Below, one piece after another: positions 2,811 to 59,478 of a stretch of DNA of 64,000 bases. Both the position numbers and the translations under genes were made by a program. The DNA lies in NCBI RefSeq assembly GCF_965363235.1, contig NC_134847.1, forward strand, positions 63,980,144-64,044,143. The letters run 5' to 3'. The stretch comes from Mytilus galloprovincialis (taxonomy: Eukaryota). Under the pieces are notes generated by a model that saw only the letters and a program-made list of their open reading frames with translations, was not told the DNA's origin and made no database searches. Numbering within the stretch: position 1 is the stretch's first letter; every line of letters begins with the position of its first letter.

Positions 2811-4000
2811 TGGAGAATATATAGTATGTAATTTATTTAGTTACATACATTGCCTATAGGTTACAAAAATACATGAGAGAAGGAAAACAGAGGCGAAAGA
2901 TACCAAAGGGAAATAATTCAAACTCATAAGACAAAACAACTGATAACACCATTGCTAAAAAAACGACAAACAGACAAACTGACAAACAGCAGTACACAAA
3001 ACACAACATGAAAACTAAAAGCTGAGCAACACGAACCCTCCTAAAACTGGTGATGATGTCTGGTGCACCGTATTAAGGGTACGCATATCCTGCTCAACAG
3101 CAGCAAATAAATTTCACAAGTAGCATCCGATTCCGTAGACTATCTTGCTATTTTGTTTGAGTTTAACTGTAAATATAGATAAGAAGATGTAGTGTGAGTG
3201 CCAATGAGACAACTCTCCACCTTAGTCACAATGTATAAAAAGTTACCAATTAAACAACTCAAACACGAAAACAAACATTCTGATCTATATTAAACAAAGA
3301 GATAAACACATATGAACCACACCAAGAGACACCACTAAACAACAGTTTCCTGACTTGGGACAGGTGCATCAAACAGATGTGCTCATAAAACGCATATAAT
3401 TGTGAATGTCAAAGAACATTTTGATTAACTGATAATAAAAAAAAACTACCGTTCAAATTAGTTTTGCTTTATTTTACGAAAGCCCCATGTCTTATATATT
3501 GTATTCTGATTATGAAACTACTGCTCTGAATGTAAAATGAACATTTCCAACTGTTTATATTCATAGCGGGCGATTATTTCAATATTAAAGTTGTTATCCT
3601 TATGCCAGCAAATTAAAAGTTTGGTTGATTTGCCTGCTTTTTTTGTATAGATATTTGCTCAAGAATTGTTATTAAGATTGACATCTGCGGTCAATACATA
3701 GGGGCTTCAGCTTGTATACATTATACTTATAAATGTTTTTGGAAGTTAAGCAATGTATACAAGTTGAATCCCCGCCTATCTAGTGGTTGCAAATGTCAAT
3801 CTTAATTACATTTATACAGCCAACCAAACCTTAAACTTGTTAGCATTATGATAATAGCTTTAAGCACAGGAATAATATATTCTAATTAGTTATCAAAGGT
3901 ACGAGGCTTATAATTTAACACGCCAGACGCGCGTTTAGTCTTCATTAGTGACGCTCAGCTCAAAATAGTTATAAAACCAAATAAGTATATACGTACTTAC

Positions 4001-21479: not shown

Positions 21480-23110
21480 TACAAATAGAGTGAAGATAGA
21501 TTAATTTTAATTGAAATTTCAAAGACTTTAATTCCATTTGAAAAGGATTTCTATTAATTTCAAAGACTTTAATTCCATTTGAAAAAGATTTCTATTCACT
21601 TATACAAAGTTATTGTACGAAAACCAAGAAGAATGCTTATTTGGGCCCTTTTAGGGCCCCTAATTCCTTAACTGTTCAGACCAAAAATCCAAGAATCATT
21701 CCTAACCTTCCTATTGTGGTCATTAACCTTGGGTTTAAATTTGATAGATTTCTATTTACTTATACTTAAGTTATTGTGCGAAAACCAAGAAAAATGCTTA
21801 TTTGGGCCCTTTTTTGGCCCCTTATTCCTATTAGGACCACAACTCCCAAAATCGATCCCAACCTTTCTTAAGTGGTATTGAACCTTGTTTTAACAAATTA
21901 TAAACCTTGTTTTAACAAATTATAGAGATCCATTCACTAAAACTAAAGTTATTGTCCGGAAACTAAATGCGTCTTTGGACGACTACCACAACATCATACC
22001 ATTATACGACACAAAAATAACAAGAATGTGTCCATAGTACACCGATGCCCCACTCGCATTATCATTTTCTATGTTCAGTAGACCGTGAAATTGGGGTCAA
22101 AACTCTAATTTGGCAATTAAATTAGAAAGATCATATCATAGGGAACATGTGTACTAAGTTTGAAGTTGATTGGACTTCAACTTCATCAAAAACTACCTTG
22201 ACCAAAAATTTAACCTGAAACTTGCACTATTATTTTCTATGTTCAGTGGACCGTGAAATTGGGGTCAAAAGTCTAATTTGGCAATTAAATTAGAAAGATC
22301 ATATCATAGGGAACATGTTTATTTAGTTTGAAGTTGATTGGACTTTAACTTTATCAAAAACTACCTTGACCAAAAAATTTAACCTGAAACTTGCACTATT
22401 ATATTCTATGTTCAGTGGACTGTGAAATTGGGGTCAAAAGTCTAATTTGGCAATTAAATTAGAAAGATCATATCATAGGGAACATGTGTACTAAGTTTAA
22501 AGTTGATTGGACTTCAACTTCATCAAAAACTACCTTGACCAAAAACTTTAACCAGAACGAACGGGACGACAGACAGATGAACGGATGGACGGACGGACAG
22601 ACCAGAAAACATAATGCCCCTCTACTATCGTAGGTGGGGCATAAAAATAAATTGTATATTTAACTTCTTATTATAGATAAGCATGGACACATCTTCAGGT
22701 CCCAATAAATTCAAGACATTTTGATAAATTGCTGCACTACCAGTGTATGATATATAAAAAAGAAGATGTGGTATGATTGCCAATGATATGCATGTCATGA
22801 GCAATCAATATTAAAGTATGTTTAAAAGAATTATGAACAAGAATGTGACCATAGTACACAGATGCTACCACTCGCACTATCATTTACTATGTTCAATGGA
22901 CTGTGAAATTGGGGTCAAAACTGTAATTTGGCATTAAAATTAGAAAAATCATATCACAGGGACCATGTATAAAAAAATTCAAGTAGATTTGTCTTCAACT
23001 TCAGCAAAAACTACCTCGACCATAAACTTTCTTGGAGCAGGACAGATGACTGGACGGAAGAACGGACTGATGCACAGACCAGAAAACATAATGCCCATAA
23101 ATGTTTGTAA
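21480..23110. repeat. Composite intronic tandem-repeat block: ~110-bp units (21480-21990), then 3 copies of a ~175-bp unit (22040-22560) ending in a gacggacgga-rich linker, plus a diverged 4th copy (22820-23110) with the same linker
   Basis: Direct repeats of cactattattttctatgttcagtggaccgtgaaattggggtcaaaagtctaatttggcaattaaattagaaagatcatatcatagggaacatgt... Confidence 0.85.
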
Positions 23111-23984: not shown

Positions 23985-24725
23985 TTATTAAGCTTGTGTT
24001 TGACTTACATTCTATTTCACTTTCACACTCTATCAGCATTCTCTCAGCCTGTACTTGTGTTTGACTTACATTCTATTTCACTTTCACACTCTATCAGCTT
24101 TCTCTCAGCCTGTGCTTGTAACTTGCCTTCTGTTTGACTTACATTCTATTTCACTTCCACTATATAAGCATTTTCTCAGCCTGTGCTTGTGACTCGCCTT
24201 GTGTTTGACTTACATTCTATTTCACTTTCACTATATTAGCTTTCTCTCAGCCTGTGCTTGTGACTCGCCTTGTGTTTTACTTACATTCTATTTCACTTTC
24301 ACTATATTAGCTTTCTCTCAGCCTGTGCTTGTGACTCGCCTTGTGTTTTACTTACATTCTATTTCACTTTCATATTCTATCAGCATTCTCTCAGCCTGTG
24401 CTTGTGACTCGGCTTGTGTTTGACTTACATTCTATTTCACTTTCACACAGCATTCTCTCAGCCTCTGCTTATGTTTGACTTACATTCTATTTCACTTTCA
24501 CACTCTATTAGCATTCTCTCAGCCTGTACTTGTGTTTGACTTACATTCTATTTCACTTTAACACTCTATTAGCATTCTCTCAGCCTGTACTTGTGTTTGA
24601 CTTACATTCTATTTCACTTTCATATTCTATCAGCATTCTCTCAGCCTCTGCTTGTGTTTGACTTACATTCTATTTCACTTTCACACTCTATTAGCATTCT
24701 CTCAGCCTGTGCTTGTGACTCAGCT
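23985..24725 (-). repeat. Satellite of ~11 units (62 or 74 bp). Each unit is a copy of the 3' end of MVP exon 22 (…AQAERMLIECESEIE) plus its gtaagtcaaacacaag splice-donor/intron start
   Basis: Read on the minus strand, each unit is caggctgagagaatgctgatagagtgtgaaagtgaaatagaatGTAAGTcaaacacaag. The array directly abuts the exon. Confidence 0.9.
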
Positions 24726-24893: not shown

Positions 24894-25201
24894 CTATGAA
24901 AAACATATACACATATAAACCAATATGGTTTAACGTTTGTGAAAAGATCAGTTATAAAATGTCAAAATTCAAACATTAGCATACATAGCAGCATAACCAC
25001 ACACCTTTATAAAATTGAATTCAGGATTTATGTATAAAACTATTATATCTAATAATAAAGAAGATGTGGTATCATTGAATTAGTTCACATGTTAAACTTA
25101 TTTTTTTTAAAGAAGAGTAAGAACTCTAAAGTTGTTTTCAATGCCTTTGTCTAATGAATGTTTCCCCACATATTTATGAAGATGTATATAACAGGACTTA
25201 C

Positions 25202-27639: not shown

Positions 27640-29355
27640 CTAAATGGAAAACAAGAGGCTCTCAAGAGCCTGAATCGCTCACCTGGTAAACAATGCCTTA
27701 TTGAACATATTGAACCATGCCAGGCAAACATGTACAGCTAACAATTCTTCAATATTACAAATATATATGACTTACTGTTTATAAATAAAGAAAATGAGAC
27801 CAAAACACAAACACTTAAAACTTAGCAATGGACTGTGCAAATGAGGTCAAGTTCAAATAAAACCTGCGTAACCGACATATAGATCATAAAATATTTTCAT
27901 ACACCAAATATAGTTGACCTAATGCATAAAGTATTAAAAAAATAGACCAAAACTAAAAAAGTTAACTTTGACCACTGAATTATGAAAATGAGGTCAAGGT
28001 TAGATGACACCTGTCAGCTAGACATTCAGGGCTGATAGATCTTGACCTAATGAACATTTTTACCCCATGTCAGATTTGCTCTAAATGCTTTCGTTTTTGA
28101 GATATAAGCCAAAAACTGCATTTGACCCCTATGTTCTATTTAAAGTAAGGGCGGCCATGTTTTTTGACGGATCAAAAATCGAAGCACACACTTTGTGCAG
28201 GATAATATAAGGAACTATCATGCTAAGTTTCATCCAAATCCATTCAGTAGTTTCAGAGGAGAAGATTTTTTAAAGTTAGCAAATATGATGAACAAATTGT
28301 AGAAAATTGTCATTAAAGGACATTTACCCCTTAAGGGGTCAATTGATAATTTTGGTCATATTAACCTATTTGTAGATCTTACTTTGCTGATCATTTTTGC
28401 TGTTTACAGTTTATCTTTATCTATAATGATATTCAAGATAATGACCAAAAACTGCAAAATTTCCTTAAAATTACCAATTAAGTGGCAGCAACCCAACAAT
28501 GGTTTGTTTGATTCGTCTGAAAATTTCAGGGCTGATAGATCTTGACCTAATGAACATTTTTACCCATGTCAGATTTGCTCTAAATGCTTTCGTTTTTGAG
28601 ATATAAGCCAAAAACTGCATTTGACCCCTATGTTCTATTTAAAGTAAGGGCGGCCATGTTTTTTGACGTATCAAAAATCGAAGCACACACTTTGTGCAGG
28701 ATAATCTAAGGAACTATCATGCTAAGTTTCATCCAAATCTATTCAGTAGTTTCAGAGGAGAAGATTTTTTAAAGTTAGCAAATATGATGAACAAATTGTG
28801 AAAAATTGTCATTTAAGGACATTTACCCGTTAAGGGGTCAATTGACAATTTTGGTCATATTAACCTATTTGTAGATCTTACTTTGCTGATCATTTTTGCT
28901 GTTTACAGTTTATCTTCATCTATAATAATATTCAAGATAATGACCAAAAACTGCAAAATTTCCTTAAAATTACCAATTAAGTGGCAGCAACCCAACAATG
29001 GTTTGTTTGATTCATCTGAAAATTTCTGGGCTGATAGATCTTGACCTAATGAACATTTTTACCCCATGTCAGATTTGCTCTAAATGCTTCCGTTTTTGAG
29101 ATATAAGCCAAAAACTGCATTTGACCCCTATATTCTATTTTAAGTAACGGCGGCCATGTTTTTTGACGGATCAAAAATCGAAGCACACACTTTGTGCAGG
29201 ATAATCTAAGGAACAATCATTTTAAGTTTCATTCAAATCCATTCAGTAGTTTCAGAGGAGAAGATGTTTGAAAAATTGTTAACGACGACGACGACGACAA
29301 CGGCGGACGCCAAGTGATGAGAAAAGCTCACATGGCCTTTTAGGCCAGGTGAGCT
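27640..29355. mobile_element. TIR-bounded non-autonomous element with ~2.7 internal tandem copies of a ~480-bp unit; ends gagcctgaatcgctcacctgg ... ccaggtgagct, followed by a (gacgac)n tail
   Basis: Left end at 27676 tcgctcacctgg, right end at 29341 ccaggtgagc (inverted); internal tandem units at 27990-29290. Confidence 0.6.
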
Positions 29356-29789: not shown

Positions 29790-30600
29790 AGGGTATAAAC
29801 TTTTATAGTGTAAAAGAGAAAAGGTGTGAACCTTTATGGTGTGAAAGAAAAATAATGTGACCCTTCAATGTGTAAAAGAGAAAGGATGTGAACTATAACG
29901 GTGTAAAAAAGAAAGAATGTGAACCTTTATGGTGTAAAAAAGACAAGATGTGAACCTTTATGGTGTAAAACAGAAACTGTGTGAACCTTCAAAGGTGTAA
30001 AACAGAAACTGTGTGAACCTTTATGGTGTAAAACAGAATCTGTGTGAACCTTCAAGGTGTAAAACAGAAACTGTGTGAACCCTTATGGTGTAAAATAGAA
30101 ACTGTGTGAATCTTTATTGTGCAAAAGGGAAAGTGTGTGAACCTTTATGGTGTAAAAGAGAAACTGTGTGAATCTTTATGGTGTAAAACAGAAACTGTGT
30201 GAACCTTTATGGTGTAAAACAGAATCTGTGTGAACCTTCAAGGTGTAAAACAGAAACTGTGTGAACCCTTATGGTGTAAAATAGAAACTGTGTAAATCTT
30301 TATGGTGCAAAATAGAAACTGTGTAAATCTTTATGGTGCAAAAGAGAAACTGTGTGAATCTTTATGGTGCAAAAGGGAAACTGTGTGAATCTTTATGGTG
30401 TAAATGAGAAAGTGTTTTAACCTTCATGGTGTAAAAGAGAAAGAGTGTGAACCTTTATGGTGTGAGAGAGAAACGGTACAAATCTTTATGGTGCAAAAGA
30501 GAAGGAATGTGAACCTGTTTGGTGTAAAATAGAAACTGTGTGAACCTTTATGGTATAAATAGAAACTGTGTGAATCTTTATGGTATAGTTTTAAAGAAAA
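29790..30600. repeat. Minisatellite, ~41-bp unit (tgtgaacctttatggtgtaaaacagaaactg), ~20 copies
   Basis: Contiguous head-to-tail units with no spacers, so not CRISPR-like. Confidence 0.9.
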
Positions 30601-39714: not shown

Positions 39715-40200
39715 GTAAAAGATTTGTTATATTGTCCCATACATGAATATATATGGTTTAGGGTGGGGATCTTGAGGGTTTTCAAGTTCTCAAACAGGAA
39801 GGGGTAAGGTGACCCCAGGGACTTCCCCTATATTTGTTTTGTTATATTGTACCATACATGAATATATATGGTTAAGGGGTGGGGATCTCATCGGTTTCCA
39901 AGTTCTCAAACAGGAGGGGGTAGGGGGGCTCCCCCTATATTTCATTTAATTAGTTATATTGACCCATACATGAATATATATTGTTTAGGGGTGGGGATCT
40001 CGACCGTTTCGTAAGTTCCCAAACAGGAGGGGGTGGGTCACCCCATGGACTCCCCTTATATTTCATTTGATTAGTTATATATATAGTCCCATACATTGAA
40101 TGTATATGGTTGAGAGGTGGGGATCTCATCCGTTTCAAAGTTATCAAACAGGAGGGGTTCGAGTGGCCCAAAGGACGCCACCTATATATGATATGATTTG
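39715..40200. repeat. Tandem repeat, ~120-125-bp unit x4 (…catacatgaatatatatggtttaggggtggggatct…caaacaggagggggt…ccccctatatttc…)
   Basis: Four collinear units. Confidence 0.85.
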
Positions 40201-41499: not shown

Positions 41500-42040
41500 T
41501 ATGTTTGGCTGTAACACCACTGTCCTAGGTTAGGGGAGGGATGAGCACTCACAAACATGTATAACCATGCCACATTCTTCATGTGCCTGTCCTTAGTCAA
41601 GAACCTGTAGTTGAGTGGTTGTCATTGGTTCATTTCCGTCATATCTTTTTTCCGTAAATTGTTTTGTTGTAAATTAAGCCATTACTTTTGTCAATTGAAT
41701 TGTTTTATATTTTGCATATCAGGGCCTTTTATAGCAGACTATACAGTATATATTTTTTCATTTTTGAAGGCAGTTAATTTTAAGGGTAAGGTTGTTTATA
41801 ATTGCTAAAATCCATTTCATTTGAACATAGGTGGATAGTTGTCTCATTGGCAATCATACCACATCTCATTATTTTTATAATTGTCAATTGCAATTGATTT
41901 TTAAGTTAGCTCTTACGTTGTGTTTTTAAAATTATGCCACTGACCTAGGTTAGGGAGGGCTGAACACTCACAAATATGTAAAACCCCACCTCATTCTTTA
42001 AGTGACTCAAGTTTTTAAGTCAAGAGCCTGTAGAACAGTA
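41500..42040. mobile_element. Two adjacent copies or fragments of the ...cattggcaatcataccacatct... SINE/MITE family (41500-41640, 41815-42040)
   Basis: cactg[tc]cctaggttagggagg...cacaaa[ct]atgta...cattctt... repeated at 41520 and 41940; tail ttgtctcattggcaatcataccacatctc at 41830. Confidence 0.5.
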
Positions 42041-43859: not shown

Positions 43860-44133
43860 GTATGCACCTGTCCTAAGTCATGAATCTGATGTTTAATTGT
43901 TGTTGTCTGTTTAGGTGGTTCATCAATGTTTTTCTCGTTTTTATATAGATTAGACCGTTCATTTTCCCACTTGAATGGTTTTGCACTGGTAGTTTTGGGG
44001 GCCCTTTATAGCTTCTGTTCAGTGTGATCCAAGTCTCTTTGTTGAAGACCGTACATTGACCTATAATGGTTTACTTTTATAATTGTTATTTGGATGGAGA
44101 GTGGTCTCATTGGCACTCATACCACATCTTCTT
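43860..44133 (+). mobile_element. SINE/MITE-like repeat (same family), ending 30 bp from the MVP exon 2 donor
   Basis: ...gggggccctttatagcttctgttcagtgtgatcc...gttgaagaccgtacattgacctataatggtttacttttat...agtggtctcattggcactcataccacatcttc. Confidence 0.6.
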
Positions 44134-44162
44134 ATATATAACTAAGACTAAACAATACCTAC

Positions 44163-49113: not shown

Positions 49114-49996
49114 CTGAAAGTAATAAATAAGCAAATAAAATAATTTGACAGATTAAAATACAGAACAGCTAATATTTTGATACCCCTTACAGCAATTGTT
49201 TTTTGGTCTTATTGATACATTTGCAGTTTCTAGACAATCAATTAAATCAACATAATGCAATACTTGGGAACATTAAAACAATGTTATGAAAGTTTAAATT
49301 GATTTTTTGGCCTTTGAAAGTCTGAGATGTGCCACTTGATATTCTGCAAATTGTGAATTATTAGCCTATAATAAATTTATACTAAGTGGAATCATTTAAA
49401 TTTATGGTTTTCCTAAACCTGTTGGTATCCAAATTAACAATGAATCCACAGACACATGTTTTCGTACAATATTCAAAGTGTATGCCCTTACTGATAAAAT
49501 ATTTCAAGTGTTTCATCTGCTGATATATAAACCATGCCATCTAATAACATTATATCAGTACCTACTGTGCGAGGGCTGAATAACCAGTCAAGGTCATTAA
49601 AAACTCCCATCATTATCAACATTATTTCAGTATATTTCATACGGTTATATGATGTACAGTGCTGTGCAATGTAACTCTATGACATATACATCATGCCATC
49701 TTCTCTATGACATATACATCATGTCGTCTTATAACATTATAGCAGTACATTCCTAAGTCTATGTCATGAACAGTGTAGCACATTGTTTCTCTCTGATATA
49801 TAAATCATGCCTTCTTATAAAATTATATCAGTATATTTCATACAGCTTTATCATGAACAGTGTAGTTCAGTGTTTTTCTCAGATATATAAACCATGCCTT
49901 TTTATAACATTATAGCAGTATATTTCTACGGCTATGTCATGAACAGTGTAGCGCATTGTTACTCTATGACATACAGGTAATGTAATCATCACTCAC

Positions 49997-50626: not shown

Positions 50627-51219
50627 TCATCATGGGTCCCTTTAAACAAATATAATTGAAGGGAAATATGAAATATTATTTACATATATGTCCTTTAAGG
50701 CAAACAGTCGATTTGCTTATTCTGTAATTCAACATGTAATGAGATATAATTTGATGGTTGTTTCTTTTAACTTATAATGCTTTGTATGTGCAGAAGCTTA
50801 TTTTGTCCAGAATACATTCTGTAATTTATCTGTTTATTTATTTTTCAACAGGTATTTACTTTAGTTGTGCAGTTAATATATTTCTAGACTTTCAGCTCTT
50901 AGATAATCTTTTCTTTCTTAGCATTTATGATGAAATGTTTTTGTTTACTTTTGGTATCAATGTATAAAGTTTCACCTTGAAAAAAAACCTGAAGGACGTT
51001 TGTATTCAGATGAAAAATTTATTGAAAAACATTATGTTTTGATTAGTTTGCTCAAATGATTTCTTCACAAATTAACAGGCTGTTTAAACTAAATTGAAAC
51101 AAAGAAGACACCTCAATCTATCAAATGAAATATGTAACTCAACCTACAGCAGATTTTCAGTGGCCCAAACTAATGACAACTTAAATAATTTCCACTTGTT
51201 TCTTGGAGTGTAAAAGTTA

Positions 51220-51666
<447 letters not shown>

Positions 51667-53739: not shown

Positions 53740-54503
53740 GCTGTAATTATTCAAACAAATAATCCCTATTAGAGGGTCCTGATTCAAATTGTTTAGAATA
53801 AAATTGACATAAGCATCATATAATATGGTATCACTAACAACCTATATTTTTTTCTTGGAGATTTTAATGAATTATATTATGAAAGGTAACATAATTTTGT
53901 ATTCTTAACTGAAACAATAAACAAGATACTAGATAACAGGACAATTCTATGTGATCTTCAAACAATGTTGAAAAATATCCAATTTCTGCTTTTCCACTGG
54001 AAATTACTATTATCAGAATGACATGAAAAGTGCAGTGCAGTACTATCTTAGGATAGAGAAGCTTTAACTGGGAGATATGGTATCAAACATGCAAACATTC
54101 AATATTGCCTAACTCACTTTCTTTCTATAGAATTAAGATTGTGTGACCTACTAGGGATTCATTATTATTCATAATTACCAATTTTAGCATATTAAGCAGA
54201 TACAGATGAACCACACATTTAAATGTTAAACTAAGTACAATTTTTCTATTGGCTTATTTGCAGACCATTGTAAAACCACAAAATATCAATGGAAATCTCT
54301 TTTCCTTTATCTATACAAATTTGTACCCACAAAATAAATGAATCACAGTATAAGAACTTCAGTTGTTCAATATATTAAGTAAGGTTCTTTCCAAATTATG
54401 AGCAGCCCAAATGTTTCCTAATTAATTTAATTCTAGTTGGAGGTCTTCAAAAAATCAGCTTTGGTAGCAAAGCTAGGAAAGTGACATTAATCATTGGAGT
54501 CTA

Positions 54504-54701
<198 letters not shown>

Positions 54702-55789
54702 TTAGTTCTATGTATATATAAATAGTAAAAAACAAGGGATAATTTTAGTTCCAGTAAAAAACATAGCTTTCAAAACAACTATTTAAATTTAGAAGTGGAA
54801 AAATAAAATGATATAATTAAAATCTGTCTCTAGCTGAATTTCTTCACATTGGTTCATTTACTTTGTGTTTACCCTTCCGTTAATCAGAATGAGGTCCAAA
54901 TAAAATGATTTTAATGAAATAGAGACCGTATCGTTTATTTTCATACATTGAAAGCAATGTTTATTCAAGAATAAAAAAAAAATCAAAATGATAAAAGATT
55001 TTTAACCCTTACCATGCTGACTTGTTTTCTACAGATGTAGTCTGTATGCTGAATTGTTTTGTTTAAATTTAAAAAAAAATGCCATCATTATTAATTTGTC
55101 CTAAACTAAATGATAAACGCCCCGATTGGTCCAAAACTTGATATCCATATAGTTGAAGAACTATACTTTAATTTGTCTAAATGGTTGCTATGGTAACAAA
55201 CATTTTTGCCTTTTTATTAGTATTTTTTGCATTAAAATGTATTTTACTGGCTAGTCTAGCCATATAATCATTTCTTATCCATCTAAATAAAATTTTAAAA
55301 TGTAGTAAACTGAAAATTACTGAAAATAAAAATACTTATATCACAAAAATGTGAAATTTTAATGTAAATAATATATGACTCACCTGTTTTAAGATGCTCT
55401 TATTGTTACAAGAAATTTATAAGATAACAAATTTTTGCTTTACTACAAACAGTCTCAACACTATAATAAACATGTAATAGATCATAAGAACTAATTCAGT
55501 TTAAGTATTCAAACAAATAAAAAGTGGTTGCTATGGTAACATCTTCGTTTCCTTAGTTTCAATTGCAGGGGAATATGCATTATTAGGACAAAAGTGCAAC
55601 ATAAATTTGACATTTGTAACCTAGAAAGCAGGATATTTTATTTTTGACACATTTGACAACTTAGTTTGTAATTCTTATTACCTCTGTTTCTGTCCAGGTT
55701 TGAATAATTTCAATTTATAACTAGTTTTGTGTTAGGCTATATGATTATATGATGTTTTGATAAGTTTAAGCAATTTTAAATTTTAATGT

Positions 55790-55985
55790 ATTGTTTTCTC
55801 GTTTCAATTGTTTTACATTGTCATTTCGTGGCCTTTTATAGCTGACTATGTGGTATGGGCTTTGCTCATTGTTGAAGACCGTATGGTTACCTATAGTTGT
55901 TAATTTCTGTGTCATTTTGGTCTCTTGTGGAGAGTTGTCTCATTGGCAATCATACCACATCTTCTTTTTTATACACAAGTTTTAT
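55790..55985 (+). mobile_element. SINE/MITE-like repeat (…gtctcattggcaatcataccacatcttc family) nested inside the 3' non-coding part of the piggyBac element
   Basis: …ggccttttatagctgactatgtggtatgggctttgctcattgttgaagaccgtatggttacctatag…gagagttgtctcattggcaatcataccacatcttc. Confidence 0.65.
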
Positions 55986-56390
55986 CTGTAGATGTACAAA
56001 CTTAAACGTCTTAAACATATTTTTTCTGATAAAGGAATGGGATTTTTTGTTATGTTCCAATCAAATTCAGGTAATAAAAATACTCTTCCTTTATACAAAC
56101 AACTATACTGACAACAAATTGTATATACCATGCCGCTGAATTTTAAGCAGACAAAACCCTACCAAATCATTGACTTTTGTAAGATCATTTGAATGTACAC
56201 AACTGAAAAGATTGGTTGCCTCGTAATTAACATTTACTCCACATCTCCTTGTTTGTCTACTGACTAGTACTGTTCTTAATTAAAAATTATGAAAAGGTCA
56301 TTTGATACTGTAATTGAAAACAATAATCCATAACTACAATTTTATAATAACTAAATTGATATTGATAACATATAAACATGCACAAAGAAA

Positions 56391-58232
56391 CTATTCCTCA
56401 TCAACTGGTTGGACAGAAGAATTCTTCCATCTCTTGTAAGCAACAACATATTCCTTTTGTGTATGCCATATCTTAAAGCATGGTTCAATGCACAAAGAAA
56501 CATTACATTCTCTACATTCGTAACAAGTCTCATGACCTGGCCGTTTGCGTTTTTGTAGGTTGTTCATATTTACATTGTTCTTTTCAGCCTCATTGCAGAC
56601 TTTGCATAAACGTGCAATGTTTTTTTTTTTGCCCACCCCTACAATTCTAGAAATGAAATGTCTTTCACTTAGGCGTTCTAATTTCGCATTTGAAGGCCTT
56701 CCTACTTTATCACTTTCTATTGGGTTATTAGATACAAGTTCAGTTATTAATTGTCTTCTGAACGCTTTATGTGTTATATTAGGGTGGTCAGCTTTATACA
56801 AAGTGTATGCATCTAGAACAGCAATAGCAAGAACATGGAAAATTACCTTTTTCCACCACTTAAATGATTTAACAACACTATTAATGTAAGTAATCATTTG
56901 ATCAGACCGATCAACACCACCCATATATTTATTATAGTAGTTCACAACACTAGGTTTTCTTATATAATCATTTGTCTCACGGTCACGACGGCGTGTGTTG
57001 ACCAAATTGGTTTTATGTATAGTCGAAAGCATAAAAACAGCCTTTCCATCAAGAAATTTGACACAATTTAAAGGACCATTACTCATTACAGAAAGATCTC
57101 CTTTATTTGTAAGTTTTTTGTCTTTCAAAAATTGTGGAATACCACGACGGTTAGACCTTACAGTGCCTGTCGCTCCTACACCTAGACCATAGAGATCCCA
57201 AAATAGTTGGGGTGATGTGTAGTAATTGTCACAATACAGATTATAACCTTTTTCATACATGCCTCGTAACATATCCATGACTAAGTCATACGTCGCGCCA
57301 TTTGAGCTTGGACCGATACCCGACTTTCCTGTATACAATTTAAATTTTGAAACATAACCGTTACTGGAGTCACTGATCATGTAGGCTTTGATTCCATATT
57401 TAACTGGCTTGTCAGGACTGTAAACTCGAAATGATAGATTACCCCTCCAAGGAATCATTCCTTCATCTAATGAAATTGATTGACCAGGTGTGTAAACTGA
57501 GTGAAATCTGTTTACAATACGACCATAGAAAGTTCCAAGTTTAAAAAGTGGGTTGTAGTTTGGTTGACCTCTAGCAACATACTCATCATTGTTGGCAAGA
57601 TGGAAGAAAGATGACATTAGGAGAAATCTGTCTCTTGGCATAGTTGACGGAAAGAATGGTGTTGAAGTGACAGGGTTTTTACTCCAGTAATCAGTCACGT
57701 CTGACTGTGACAGAATACCCATTGCAAAAACTACAGCAATGAAACGCTTCATTTCTGTGGCAGTAGTGTTTGTCCACTTTCTAAACCTTGAAAATCTGCT
57801 CAAGTTATTGTTTTTATCAAGATATTGCTTTGCGTATCTGTTTGTTTCCTCAGAAATGTTCTCAAAATCATTTTCATTGACATATAAATAGAAATAATCA
57901 GAAACGGACGCATTGTCTGGGAGGTCACACTTAATTCCTGGGGTTTGCGTAAAAGGTAGAAGTTCTGGATTTTTTTCACCCATAACCCAGTTATCAATAT
58001 CAAACAAATCATCTCTTTCAGAAACATTGTCAATATTTAGGTCATCCTCAGCAAAGTCATTTTCAGTAAATCCTTCAAATTCTTCATTTTCACTATCAGT
58101 GTCAGCAAATAGTTCACATATATTTTCAGCAATAGATGTGCTGGCTTCTGCCATTATCAGAAAGTAAACACAGAAACGCCCCCTTTTTATTTTATTTTGC
58201 GAAAAAGAAAAGATAGAAAAAAATAGCTGCAT
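56391..58232 (-). CDS. piggyBac-family (DDE_Tnp_1_7) transposase, 613 aa in the longest ORF; the likely true start is the internal Met at 58154 (MAEASTSIAEN...), giving 587 aa
   Basis: Catalytic DDD context is present (…ISLDEGMIPWRG…, …YCDNYYTSPQLFWDLYGLGVGATGTVRSNRRGIP…, …YMGGVDRSDQMI…). The C-terminal Cys-rich domain is CKVCNEAEKN…CYECRECNVSLCIEPCFKIWHT. There are no frameshifts or stops. Confidence 0.95.
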   Translation of the reverse strand: MQLFFSIFSFSQNKIKRGRFCVYFLIMAEASTSIAENICELFADTDSENEEFEGFTENDFAEDDLNIDNVSERDDLFDIDNWVMGEKNPELLPFTQTPGIKCDLPDNASVSDYFYLYVNENDFENISEETNRYAKQYLDKNNNLSRFSRFRKWTNTTATEMKRFIAVVFAMGILSQSDVTDYWSKNPVTSTPFFPSTMPRDRFLLMSSFFHLANNDEYVARGQPNYNPLFKLGTFYGRIVNRFHSVYTPGQSISLDEGMIPWRGNLSFRVYSPDKPVKYGIKAYMISDSSNGYVSKFKLYTGKSGIGPSSNGATYDLVMDMLRGMYEKGYNLYCDNYYTSPQLFWDLYGLGVGATGTVRSNRRGIPQFLKDKKLTNKGDLSVMSNGPLNCVKFLDGKAVFMLSTIHKTNLVNTRRRDRETNDYIRKPSVVNYYNKYMGGVDRSDQMITYINSVVKSFKWWKKVIFHVLAIAVLDAYTLYKADHPNITHKAFRRQLITELVSNNPIESDKVGRPSNAKLERLSERHFISRIVGVGKKKNIARLCKVCNEAEKNNVNMNNLQKRKRPGHETCYECRECNVSLCIEPCFKIWHTQKEYVVAYKRWKNSSVQPVDEE

Positions 58233-59304
58233 ATTTTGGATAACTCATTGGAAAAACAACAAAACTCATTCATATTTATCAATTTATTTTTCTTGAATAT
58301 ACCTGAAAAGCCCATAAATATGGGAAAATATCAGACGATAAATAGATTTGACAACGGATTCACATTTTGTTTCTTTGATTCACGTTTCTTTTATTTCGGA
58401 AAAGAATTCCAAGTTTTCAAAGATTTTCGAGGAATATAGGTATTAACAGCACCTAGAAAGATGGATTTGTGTTCAGGCATTATTAATTTTATGGGAAATG
58501 TGTATCCTCAAGCATGGACACTGATAGAGTTACTGAAAAAAACTATAAATTGTTGGTAACAAACTGTGCGGCAACTTTCATTTTCTCTTTCGGAACGTCT
58601 CTCAAGCGAGTAAACTTCCGGTTGATATTTCCATACAATTTATGTATTTTTACCACCAAACTTCTAAATTTGCAAAATATCAATCAAATAACAACGATAA
58701 ATTAATATTCACCTTTAAGACAATATTTTATTCTTACGGTTTTAGACGAAATCTATTTATATAATACAGGAAAGGGCGGGGCATGTGCGCGGGAATTTCA
58801 TATTTCACGTAAACTGTTTTATTTCATATTTTTACTTAAATAATTCCATTTTTTTCACAAAAGAACTTTTACACGTGTCAAAATATTCTTCTATTTACCC
58901 AGACATATAGTTTTGATAATCAAATGAACAAGAATTGAGCGAGGACGAAAAGGATTTCCCTAGATGTATTTTTAGATTTTTTACGTCATGCCAAAAACAA
59001 ATTATTTTCCTGAAAGTAAAATTAAAGTGTATATTTGTTTATTATAAAGACTTAAAATGGTTCAAATTGAATAATGGATATAGATCTGATGGCTCATTCA
59101 AATTTAAACTCGGAGTTTTGTGATTATGCGAGGATTTGAAGGTTTTTTGAAAGGTCAGAAAATTGCCAGTGTAACCCGTCAAAAGACGGGTTCCGCACTG
59201 AGAACGACGACGTCAAACCCGTCAAAAGACGGGATCCGCATGGTAAGGGTTAATGCAAAGTTGCAAAAGAAAAATTCATATGACAGTGTGAGAGAAAAAT
59301 ACTA

Positions 59305-59478
<174 letters not shown>

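Follow-up and report, generated by a model that had tools for sequence, protein, structure and literature searches.

The 64,000 nt of Mytilus galloprovincialis DNA analysed here (contig NC_134847.1, positions 63,980,144 to 64,044,143 of the forward strand; the whole stretch is called the window below) raise the question whether a piggyBac-like sequence between 55002 and 59253 is a complete transposon able to move, a dead copy, or a gene taken over by the host. Very probably it is a full-length autonomous transposon of the piggyBac superfamily, belonging to a young, low-copy family of Mytilus (M. edulis complex) that moved very recently and is probably still competent. It has the architecture of such elements, intact catalytic and zinc-ligand residues, termini that are conserved in related elements, and copies almost identical to it, which are at other loci and come from two species. 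A sequence-only reading, made earlier without database searches, had already described it as apparently intact and possibly active.

Boundaries and termini

The element is 4,244 bp long plus the duplicated TTAA (Table 1). The sequence-only reading had placed a TTAA at each flank and perfect 12-bp inverted repeats immediately inside them, and direct reading of the letters confirmed both. The repeats match at 12 of 12 positions and, in the extended form CCCTTACCATGC[T/G]GA, at 14 of 15. A repeat finder pairs the two ends as 19-nt arms including TTAA, with 95% complementarity. The repeats begin with CCC and end with GGG, directly abutting TTAA, and the 4-bp duplication of TTAA is likewise that of piggyBac elements. 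Chance pairing of the 12-mer, which that reading had named as a weak point, is not seen: with up to one mismatch allowed, the only two sites in the window are the element ends, while the chance expectation is about 0.16 matches and two or more were present in 2 of 100 shuffles. No second piggyBac-related coding sequence was found within the window.

Further copies are designated as L001 (M. edulis chromosome OY782964.1), L002 (a contig of the European Nucleotide Archive), and L003 to L006 (Logan contigs of runs SRR29152234, -35, -36, and -39, with L004 from SRR29152239). The nearest other lineages are the P0121 family (L007 to L014) and P0005 (L015), with 64–66% protein identity. TTAA abuts the same 5' terminus in L002, L003, L004, L007, L008, L009, and L015, all in different flanks. 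Full sister elements, both flanked by TTAA, are 4,958 bp (L007) and 4,226 bp (L015) long, and L007, L008, and L009 have one 5' boundary in three different flanks. Together, L007 to L009 and L015 begin with TTAA/CCCT..CATGCGG.TCCCGT...ACGG and end with ...GCATG.TAAGGG/TTAA in four further flanks; the ending ...TAAGGG/TTAA of L007 and L015 is at the matching 3' position. Boundaries of the same kind elsewhere, as the sequence-only reading would require, are thus present even in diverged elements. In the relatives, the 5' inverted repeat is kept as CCCT[TA][AG][CT]CATGC.

In the conserved 5' end, two direct copies of (A/G)TGCGGA-[AT]CCCGTC-TTTT-GACGGG stand 43 bp apart at 59216-59240 and 59173-59197 (direct repeat D3), and inside each copy is the palindrome CCCGTCnnnnGACGGG (59218-59233 and 59175-59190). 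The motif common to the sister elements is [A/G]TGCGGA-[A/T]CCCGT(C)-spacer-(G)ACGG. At the 3' end, the two ATGCTGA motifs are 32 bp apart, in contrast to the 43-bp spacing at the 5' end. Outside the termini and the coding sequence (CDS), the sister elements are essentially unalignable, and the sole other match is a short X-box-like motif in common with L007. Conserved termini amid an unalignable interior are the signature of cis-acting transposon ends. From these comparisons, the functional ends are probably about 75–100 bp long and carry asymmetric subterminal repeats, rather than consisting of the 12 bp alone. By analogy with other piggyBac elements, the subterminal motifs would be bound by the transposase.

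The X-box-like motif is a palindrome, GTTACCATAGCAAC (GTTGCTATGGTAAC on the plus strand), which occurs twice in the 3' non-coding arm, at 55184-55197 and 55527-55540, 343 bp apart. It resembles the RFX X-box, a matching motif is at L007:4287-4315, and it may have a regulatory role or be bound by a host factor.

Run ERR3959536, with the sister family, is in the same accession series as the Bathymodiolus puteoserpentis data set (PMC9628169). By this accession proximity, the P0121 family is tentatively placed in deep-sea mytilids (Bathymodiolus).

Transposase

An open reading frame (ORF) of 613 codons without a stop, as claimed from the sequence alone, was found on the minus strand at 56391..58232. 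It is the longest ORF of the window, more than 3-fold above the next one, and at 32% GC an open frame of 613 codons would arise by chance somewhere in the window with a probability of about 2e-16. The frame opens at an in-frame upstream ATG at 58232, and this 613-aa version is the one used in NCBI model XP_071129298.1. The second Met is the start position in 15 of 15 aligned relatives; because all of them begin there, translation more probably starts at the second ATG, at 58154, and gives a product of 587 aa. Residues are numbered here from the first Met.

The Pfam profile DDE_Tnp_1_7 was matched with an E value of 2.3e-82 and 277.5 bits (cut-off 22.4) over profile positions 3-349 of 349. The three catalytic-Asp contexts noticed earlier are SL-D256-EG, YC-D335-NY, and GGV-D441-RSD. 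In HMMER alignments to the Trichoplusia ni (6x67) and piggyBat (9c0f) structures, T. ni D268, D346, D447, and D450 pair with D256, D335, D441, and D444. In the family alignment, which consists of the ORF and 15 relatives with 42–66% identity (16 sequences), D256, D335, and D441 are invariant. Among solved structures, the protein matched piggyBat 9c0f (E 3.3e-66, residues 77-595) and T. ni 6x67 (E 9e-32). An AlphaFold2 model computed from the family alignment reached a predicted local distance difference test score (pLDDT) of 74.9, and Foldseek with this model returned 9c0f (E 3e-32, template modelling score (TM) 0.75), 6x67 (E 2e-24, TM 0.72), and then Tn5 transposase. The predicted fold is accordingly named as that of an RNase-H-like piggyBac transposase.

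The Cys-rich finger, also claimed earlier, is indeed C-terminal and conserved, but its type is the variant one of piggyBat and PiggyMac and not that of T. ni. All eight putative zinc ligands (H525, C543, C546, C573, C576, C581, C585, and H590) are invariant in the 16 sequences, the layout is H...CxxC...CxxC-x4-C-x3-C-x4-H, and the domain, including the upstream His, aligns with the Cys-rich domain of piggyBat. A variant domain with upstream His has been described for PiggyMac, piggyBat, and human PGBD2-4, and the T. ni type is CxxC-CxxC-CxxH-CxxC (PMC8086355). The latter motif, of the PHD-like DNA-binding subgroup, is absent from the mussel protein. Between the CxxC pairs there is a basic loop (KRKR) of 26 residues; since every aligned relative has it, it is a trait of the family and not a lesion.

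Conservation of the ORF, on which autonomy had been made to depend, is evident relative to the two sister elements. The ratio of nonsynonymous to synonymous substitution rates (dN/dS) is about 0.06-0.08, with dS saturated, and there is no catalytic-Asp substitution.

Copies at other loci and recency of movement

The sequence-only reading had predicted near-identical copies with different flanks, and such copies were found. The exact transposase protein is encoded on six further contigs, L001 to L006, and NCBI lists the exact 613-aa protein from M. edulis. All six match the window only inside the element, with 99.9–100% identity, and their flanks do not match. The 5' junctions read gca/TTAA/CCC in the window, atg/TTAA/CCC in L002, and tc/TTAA/CCC in L003, and L004 starts at TTAA itself. 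L003 and L004 both stop at this boundary, as contigs should when one repeat is joined to several flanks and the assembly graph branches at the junction. Different flanks around an interior of at least 99.9% identity are thus represented by the window, L001, L002, and L003/L004. Over about 4.2 kb, private differences number one in the window (a substitution at 59001), three in L001, and none in L002, and the CDS is identical in 7 of 7 sequences. The L001 copy is in an intron of an AMP-binding-domain gene on OY782964.1 and the window copy in an intron of CDC5L. The flanks of L001 and L002 have several dispersed-repeat families in common with the window, which must therefore stem from that genome or a very near one, of a Mytilus in the edulis complex.

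Runs SRR29152234 to -36 are shotgun DNA from gills of M. galloprovincialis (PMC11729891). SRR29152239 is outside the stated run range and was assigned to the same gill study by accession proximity only. The Logan contigs had also been considered as transcripts, and thus as evidence of expression; this was rejected on account of the shotgun origin of the runs.

Nested inside each copy is a dispersed repeat of about 180 bp (Table 1). Elsewhere in the window, the same repeat has six copies or fragments (1464-1576, 3174-3220, 22753-22786, 25052-25077, 41686-41879, and 43962-44140), and it is also present in the L001 flank (L001:4007-4186); copies are 70–100% identical, and the family ends with ...CATTGGCAATCATACCACATCTTCTT(T/A)TTT. 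A Rfam scan of the whole window returned no family, so the repeat was not typed as a tRNA-derived short interspersed element (SINE). It is in every Mytilus copy of the transposon, with 4 of 4 Logan contigs ending inside it at 55949, and absent from the sister elements L007 and L015. Since every copy has it, the repeat must have entered ahead of the recent amplification and was no obstacle to movement. A reading of the repeat as a sign of age or decay was rejected for this reason.

L001 is the only copy annotated by NCBI (L001:8980-13240, at about 26.58 Mb of OY782964.1). Inside it is 99.9% identical, and both termini are gone: 29 bp are missing from the 5' end, including TTAA and the inverted repeat, and the last 5 bp and TTAA from the 3' end, with unrelated sequence in both places. 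This could be the result of abortive excision, repair-mediated copying, or an assembly error. In L002 (L002:7800-7948), the TTAA and inverted repeat of the 5' end are perfect, and the 3' end reads GCATGGTAAG/TTGGGTATTATT rather than GCATGGTAAGGG/TTAA; possible causes are an insertion of 2 bp, truncation of the terminus, or a contig that is chimeric at its end. The L001 flanks contain a 16-nt inverted repeat, which was considered as a sign of capture by another element; this was rejected, since equally good pairs are abundant in AT-rich DNA.

Several of the results weigh against a family that moved recently and is still competent. Of the three full-length copies seen, two are damaged at their ends, and only the window copy is intact at both. 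Few copies are visible, and the one annotated in the M. edulis reference is L001, which has lost its termini. The 3' non-coding region of the element contains the nested repeat, though all copies have it in common. Consisting of DNA and not RNA, the Logan contigs give no support for expression. The predicted empty allele of the CDC5L intron is GATAAAAGATTT-TTAA-TGCAAAGTTGC, with an intron of 370 nt. Scans of Joint Genome Institute (JGI) metagenomes gave 0 matches for the terminal 22-mer and 0 for the predicted 24-mer empty site, exact look-ups of the flank ORFs 54501-54680 and 51217-51633 for the empty site found nothing on record, and neither an empty allele nor an excision footprint was retrieved in the protein, flank-ORF, and JGI searches. 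Finally, the Pfam zinc-finger profile zf-Tnp_2 (PF13842) scored 18 bits, under its gathering cut-off of 24. The loop of 26 residues and the variant arrangement of ligands probably account for the low score, which thus points to a limit of the model and not to a lesion.

The missing empty site, footprint, and transcript, the ends damaged in two of three copies, the nested repeat in the 3' region of all copies, and the apparently low copy number would also suit a structurally intact but dead or silenced copy, that is, a very young fossil put out of action, for example, by Piwi-interacting RNA or chromatin silencing, by a missense change, or by the nested repeat. Against this, copies from two species show 0 differences in 1.8 kb of CDS and no more than three in 4.2 kb, and such near-zero divergence leaves very little time for inactivation. 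The catalytic, zinc-ligand, and terminal motifs all match the family consensus, and the nested repeat, being older than the amplification, was no bar to movement. A young fossil is therefore unlikely.

The near-identity across species might also point to a recent horizontal transfer into Mytilus, in which the 67–99% identity gap in the protein collection would reflect a recent arrival. The 90% cluster of the transposase has a single member, the next relative is 66% identical, other listed Mytilus piggyBac proteins are at most 53% identical, and copies from M. edulis and M. galloprovincialis are at least 99.97% identical. The closest sister family, P0121, is however tentatively from Bathymodiolus, itself a mytilid, and together with saturated dS this agrees with long vertical inheritance within Mytilidae. 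Genes are exchanged between the semi-isolated M. edulis and M. galloprovincialis, whose net divergence (Da) is <2% (PMC5189939), and introgression between them explains the identity across species. A scan of viral contigs with the family alignment found no relative. Transposable-element proteins often go unannotated, and the protein index has gaps (no Mytilus CDC5L was returned, for example), which tempers the apparent gap from 66% to 100%. Recent arrival of the family by transfer is possible and not required, and we consider it quite improbable.

A domesticated, PGBD4-like host gene is effectively refuted and hardly credible. In its favour, the identical NCBI protein is named 'piggyBac transposable element-derived protein 4-like', and comparison with the sister lineages shows purifying selection on the ORF. 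That name derives from homology, however, and autonomous transposases, too, should have low dN/dS between lineages. The inverted repeats and TTAA duplications are intact, the same sequence is found in introns of different genes at several unrelated loci, and conservation in the sister elements extends to the non-coding termini.

The reading of a full-length autonomous transposon that moved very recently is thus retained, and present-day mobility is what we infer from it. Somewhat more doubtful, though a serious possibility, is that the family is mobile now in wild Mytilus and spreading through the interbreeding M. edulis/M. galloprovincialis complex, with the CDC5L copy recent and polymorphic.

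Insertion site, proposed mechanism, and known systems

The host gene is a homologue of the pre-mRNA splicing factor CDC5L/Cef1, coded on the minus strand by exon-like ORFs from 63975 to 49039 (at least 13 exons); its N-terminal Myb exons are beyond the window end. It is about 72% identical to Pinctada CDC5L, and its homologues, annotated as CDC5L, contain PF11831. The intron has a length of 4,618 nt, of which 370 nt remain once the element and one copy of TTAA are subtracted. The element is in sense orientation to CDC5L, and its 5' TTAA begins 60 nt past the splice donor. Two protein searches with the concatenated CDC5L exons returned no CDC5L of Mytilus, Crassostrea, or Pecten, with Pinctada as the best match (72%); proteins matched by the exon peptides seemed limited to about 1.7 times the query length. 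As the protein index is without Mytilus CDC5L, absence from it is weak evidence of absence.

Table 1. Positions in the window of the transposon, its parts, and the host intron
Feature	Position	Strand	Basis or remark
TTAA target-site duplication, transposase-5' (right) end	59250..59253	.	Read directly from sequence
TTAA target-site duplication, transposase-3' (left) end	55002..55005	.	Read directly from sequence
5' terminal inverted repeat CCCTTACCATGC (minus-strand reading)	59238..59249	-	Plus-strand letters are GCATGGTAAGGG
3' terminal inverted repeat CCCTTACCATGC (plus-strand reading, inward)	55006..55017	+	Conserved in L007 and L015
Conserved 5' end, about 100 bp, presumptive transposase-binding region	59152..59249	-	About 80% identity to sister elements
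Conserved 3' end, about 72 bp	55006..55077	+	Two ATGCTGA motifs at 55014-55020 and 55046-55052
Transposase CDS, single exon, probably 587 aa from second Met, plus stop	56391..58154	-	ORF list; start position of relatives
DDE_Tnp_1_7 (PF13843) catalytic core, residues 111-476 of the 613-aa ORF	56805..57902	-	Pfam
Catalytic Asp codons	57465-57467 (D256), 57228-57230 (D335), 56910-56912 (D441)	-	Alignment; D444 next
C-terminal Cys-rich domain, variant type	56463..56660	-	H525...C543xxC546...(basic KRKR loop)...C573xxC576...C581...C585...H590 (613-aa numbering)
Nested dispersed repeat, about 180 bp, like a SINE or miniature inverted-repeat transposable element, ending ...CATTGGCAATCATACCACATCTTCTTTTTT	55795..55973	.	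3' non-coding part of element
Host intron of CDC5L/Cef1 homologue	54696..59313	-	Donor GT 59313-59312, acceptor AG 54697-54696, phase 0
CDC5L exons flanking the insertion	59314-59478 and 54519-54695	-	Downstream exon begins ag/EAQNIMALQ...

Elsewhere in the window, a 27-bp minisatellite, TGTCATGCATACATTGTAATTGTTTAC, is present in about 50 copies at 2-1358; the ORFs 325-921 (198 aa) and 855-1340 (161 aa) inside it have no Pfam match and are not genes. An ORF at 1641-1997 on the minus strand has a weak match to MBOAT (PF03062; 27.1 bits, cut-off 27) and probably belongs, as one exon, to an acyltransferase gene next to the window. Tandem arrays were identified at 22052-22557, 23993-24721, 28025-29273, 29798-30584, 39721-40198, and 49701-49965, with periods of 169, 61/71, 499, 31, about 112-238, and 86 bp, respectively. 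Sequence related to the 169-bp and 499-bp units is present in the L001 flanks too.

The mechanism proposed for the element follows the paradigm of T. ni piggyBac and piggyBat. The single exon would give the 587-aa transposase, which would bind the asymmetric ends at the terminal CCC...ATGC[G/T]GA and at the internal motif copy, which is 43 bp (5' end) or 32 bp (3' end) further in. Contact would be through the dimerisation and DNA-binding regions, possibly with the Cys-rich zinc domain. The D-D-D RNase-H-like site would then nick the TTAA/CCC junctions, hairpins would form on the transposon ends and open again, and the element would be pasted into a new TTAA, which is duplicated; precise excision would restore a single TTAA. 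By such steps, the window copy would have landed in the 370-nt CDC5L intron, in sense orientation and close to the splice donor.

To our knowledge, it is uncommon for piggyBac elements to be naturally intact and to have moved very recently, except in insects, bats, and a few fishes and frogs, and we know of no native genetic tools for bivalves. The one study of piggyBac transgenesis in a mollusc that a literature search found reportedly used the insect element. With ends of about 100 and 75 bp and an intact 587-aa transposase, the mussel element is a ready candidate for functional testing. If mobile today, it would represent an endogenous cut-and-paste transposon that is naturally active in a bivalve and could serve as a native vector for transgenesis or insertional mutagenesis in molluscs. 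Insertion polymorphisms of so young a family would be useful markers of introgression among Mytilus species, and the sense insertion 60 nt from the donor in an essential gene, CDC5L, is a natural test of insertion tolerance.

Autonomous piggyBac elements are already known in bivalves. There are 27 curated full-length bivalve consensus elements with inverted repeats, duplications, and an ORF >300 aa (Martelossi et al. 2023, PMC10294476), and of the more than 13,000 piggyBac elements mined elsewhere, fish and molluscs together make up a few per cent (PMC13461360). The literature search found no description of this Mytilus family, and with the bivalve and mined libraries the comparison was by class. 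The combination of 'piggyBac' and Mytilus in papers on transmissible cancer means 'piggyback' chromatogram peaks and is irrelevant. The present case extends the catalogue and changes no concept; specific to it are the near-identical copies at several loci and in two species, and the insertion in CDC5L.

Among known systems, piggyBat of Myotis lucifugus (9c0f) is the best solved-structure match. It has in common with the mussel protein the DDD triad and the variant Cys-rich layout with upstream His, and both elements target TTAA and are naturally intact and multi-copy. The two proteins are only about 30% identical and come from different host phyla, the basic KRKR loop between the CxxC pairs is longer in the mussel protein, and the termini are unrelated in sequence except for the CCC...GGG ends. 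Activity of piggyBat is demonstrated, whereas the mussel element is known here from its sequence.

T. ni piggyBac (IFP2, 6x67/6x68) also duplicates TTAA, has short inverted repeats with CCC, and has ends that are asymmetric in the spacing of internal repeats. It is about 2.5 kb long, whereas the mussel element is 4.2 kb with long non-coding arms. The proteins are about 22% identical, with the catalytic Asp residues aligned and the modelled fold at TM 0.72. The T. ni Cys-rich domain is PHD-like and DNA-binding, in contrast to the variant one of the mussel protein (PMC8086355). PGBD4 and other PGBD genes have a homologous transposase core and the same variant type of Cys-rich domain; they are without mobile ends and at fixed orthologous loci, whereas the mussel element has intact ends and several loci.

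The closest systems are the sister mytilid elements P0121 and P0005. They have the same architecture with 4.2–5.0 kb, the same TTAA boundaries, the same position of the start codon, and terminal blocks about 80% identical, including the GCGGA-CCCGT...ACGG motif pairs. Their proteins are 64–66% identical to the mussel one, their interiors are unalignable, the nested 180-bp repeat is absent, and dS is saturated, which makes them distinct, long-separated lineages.

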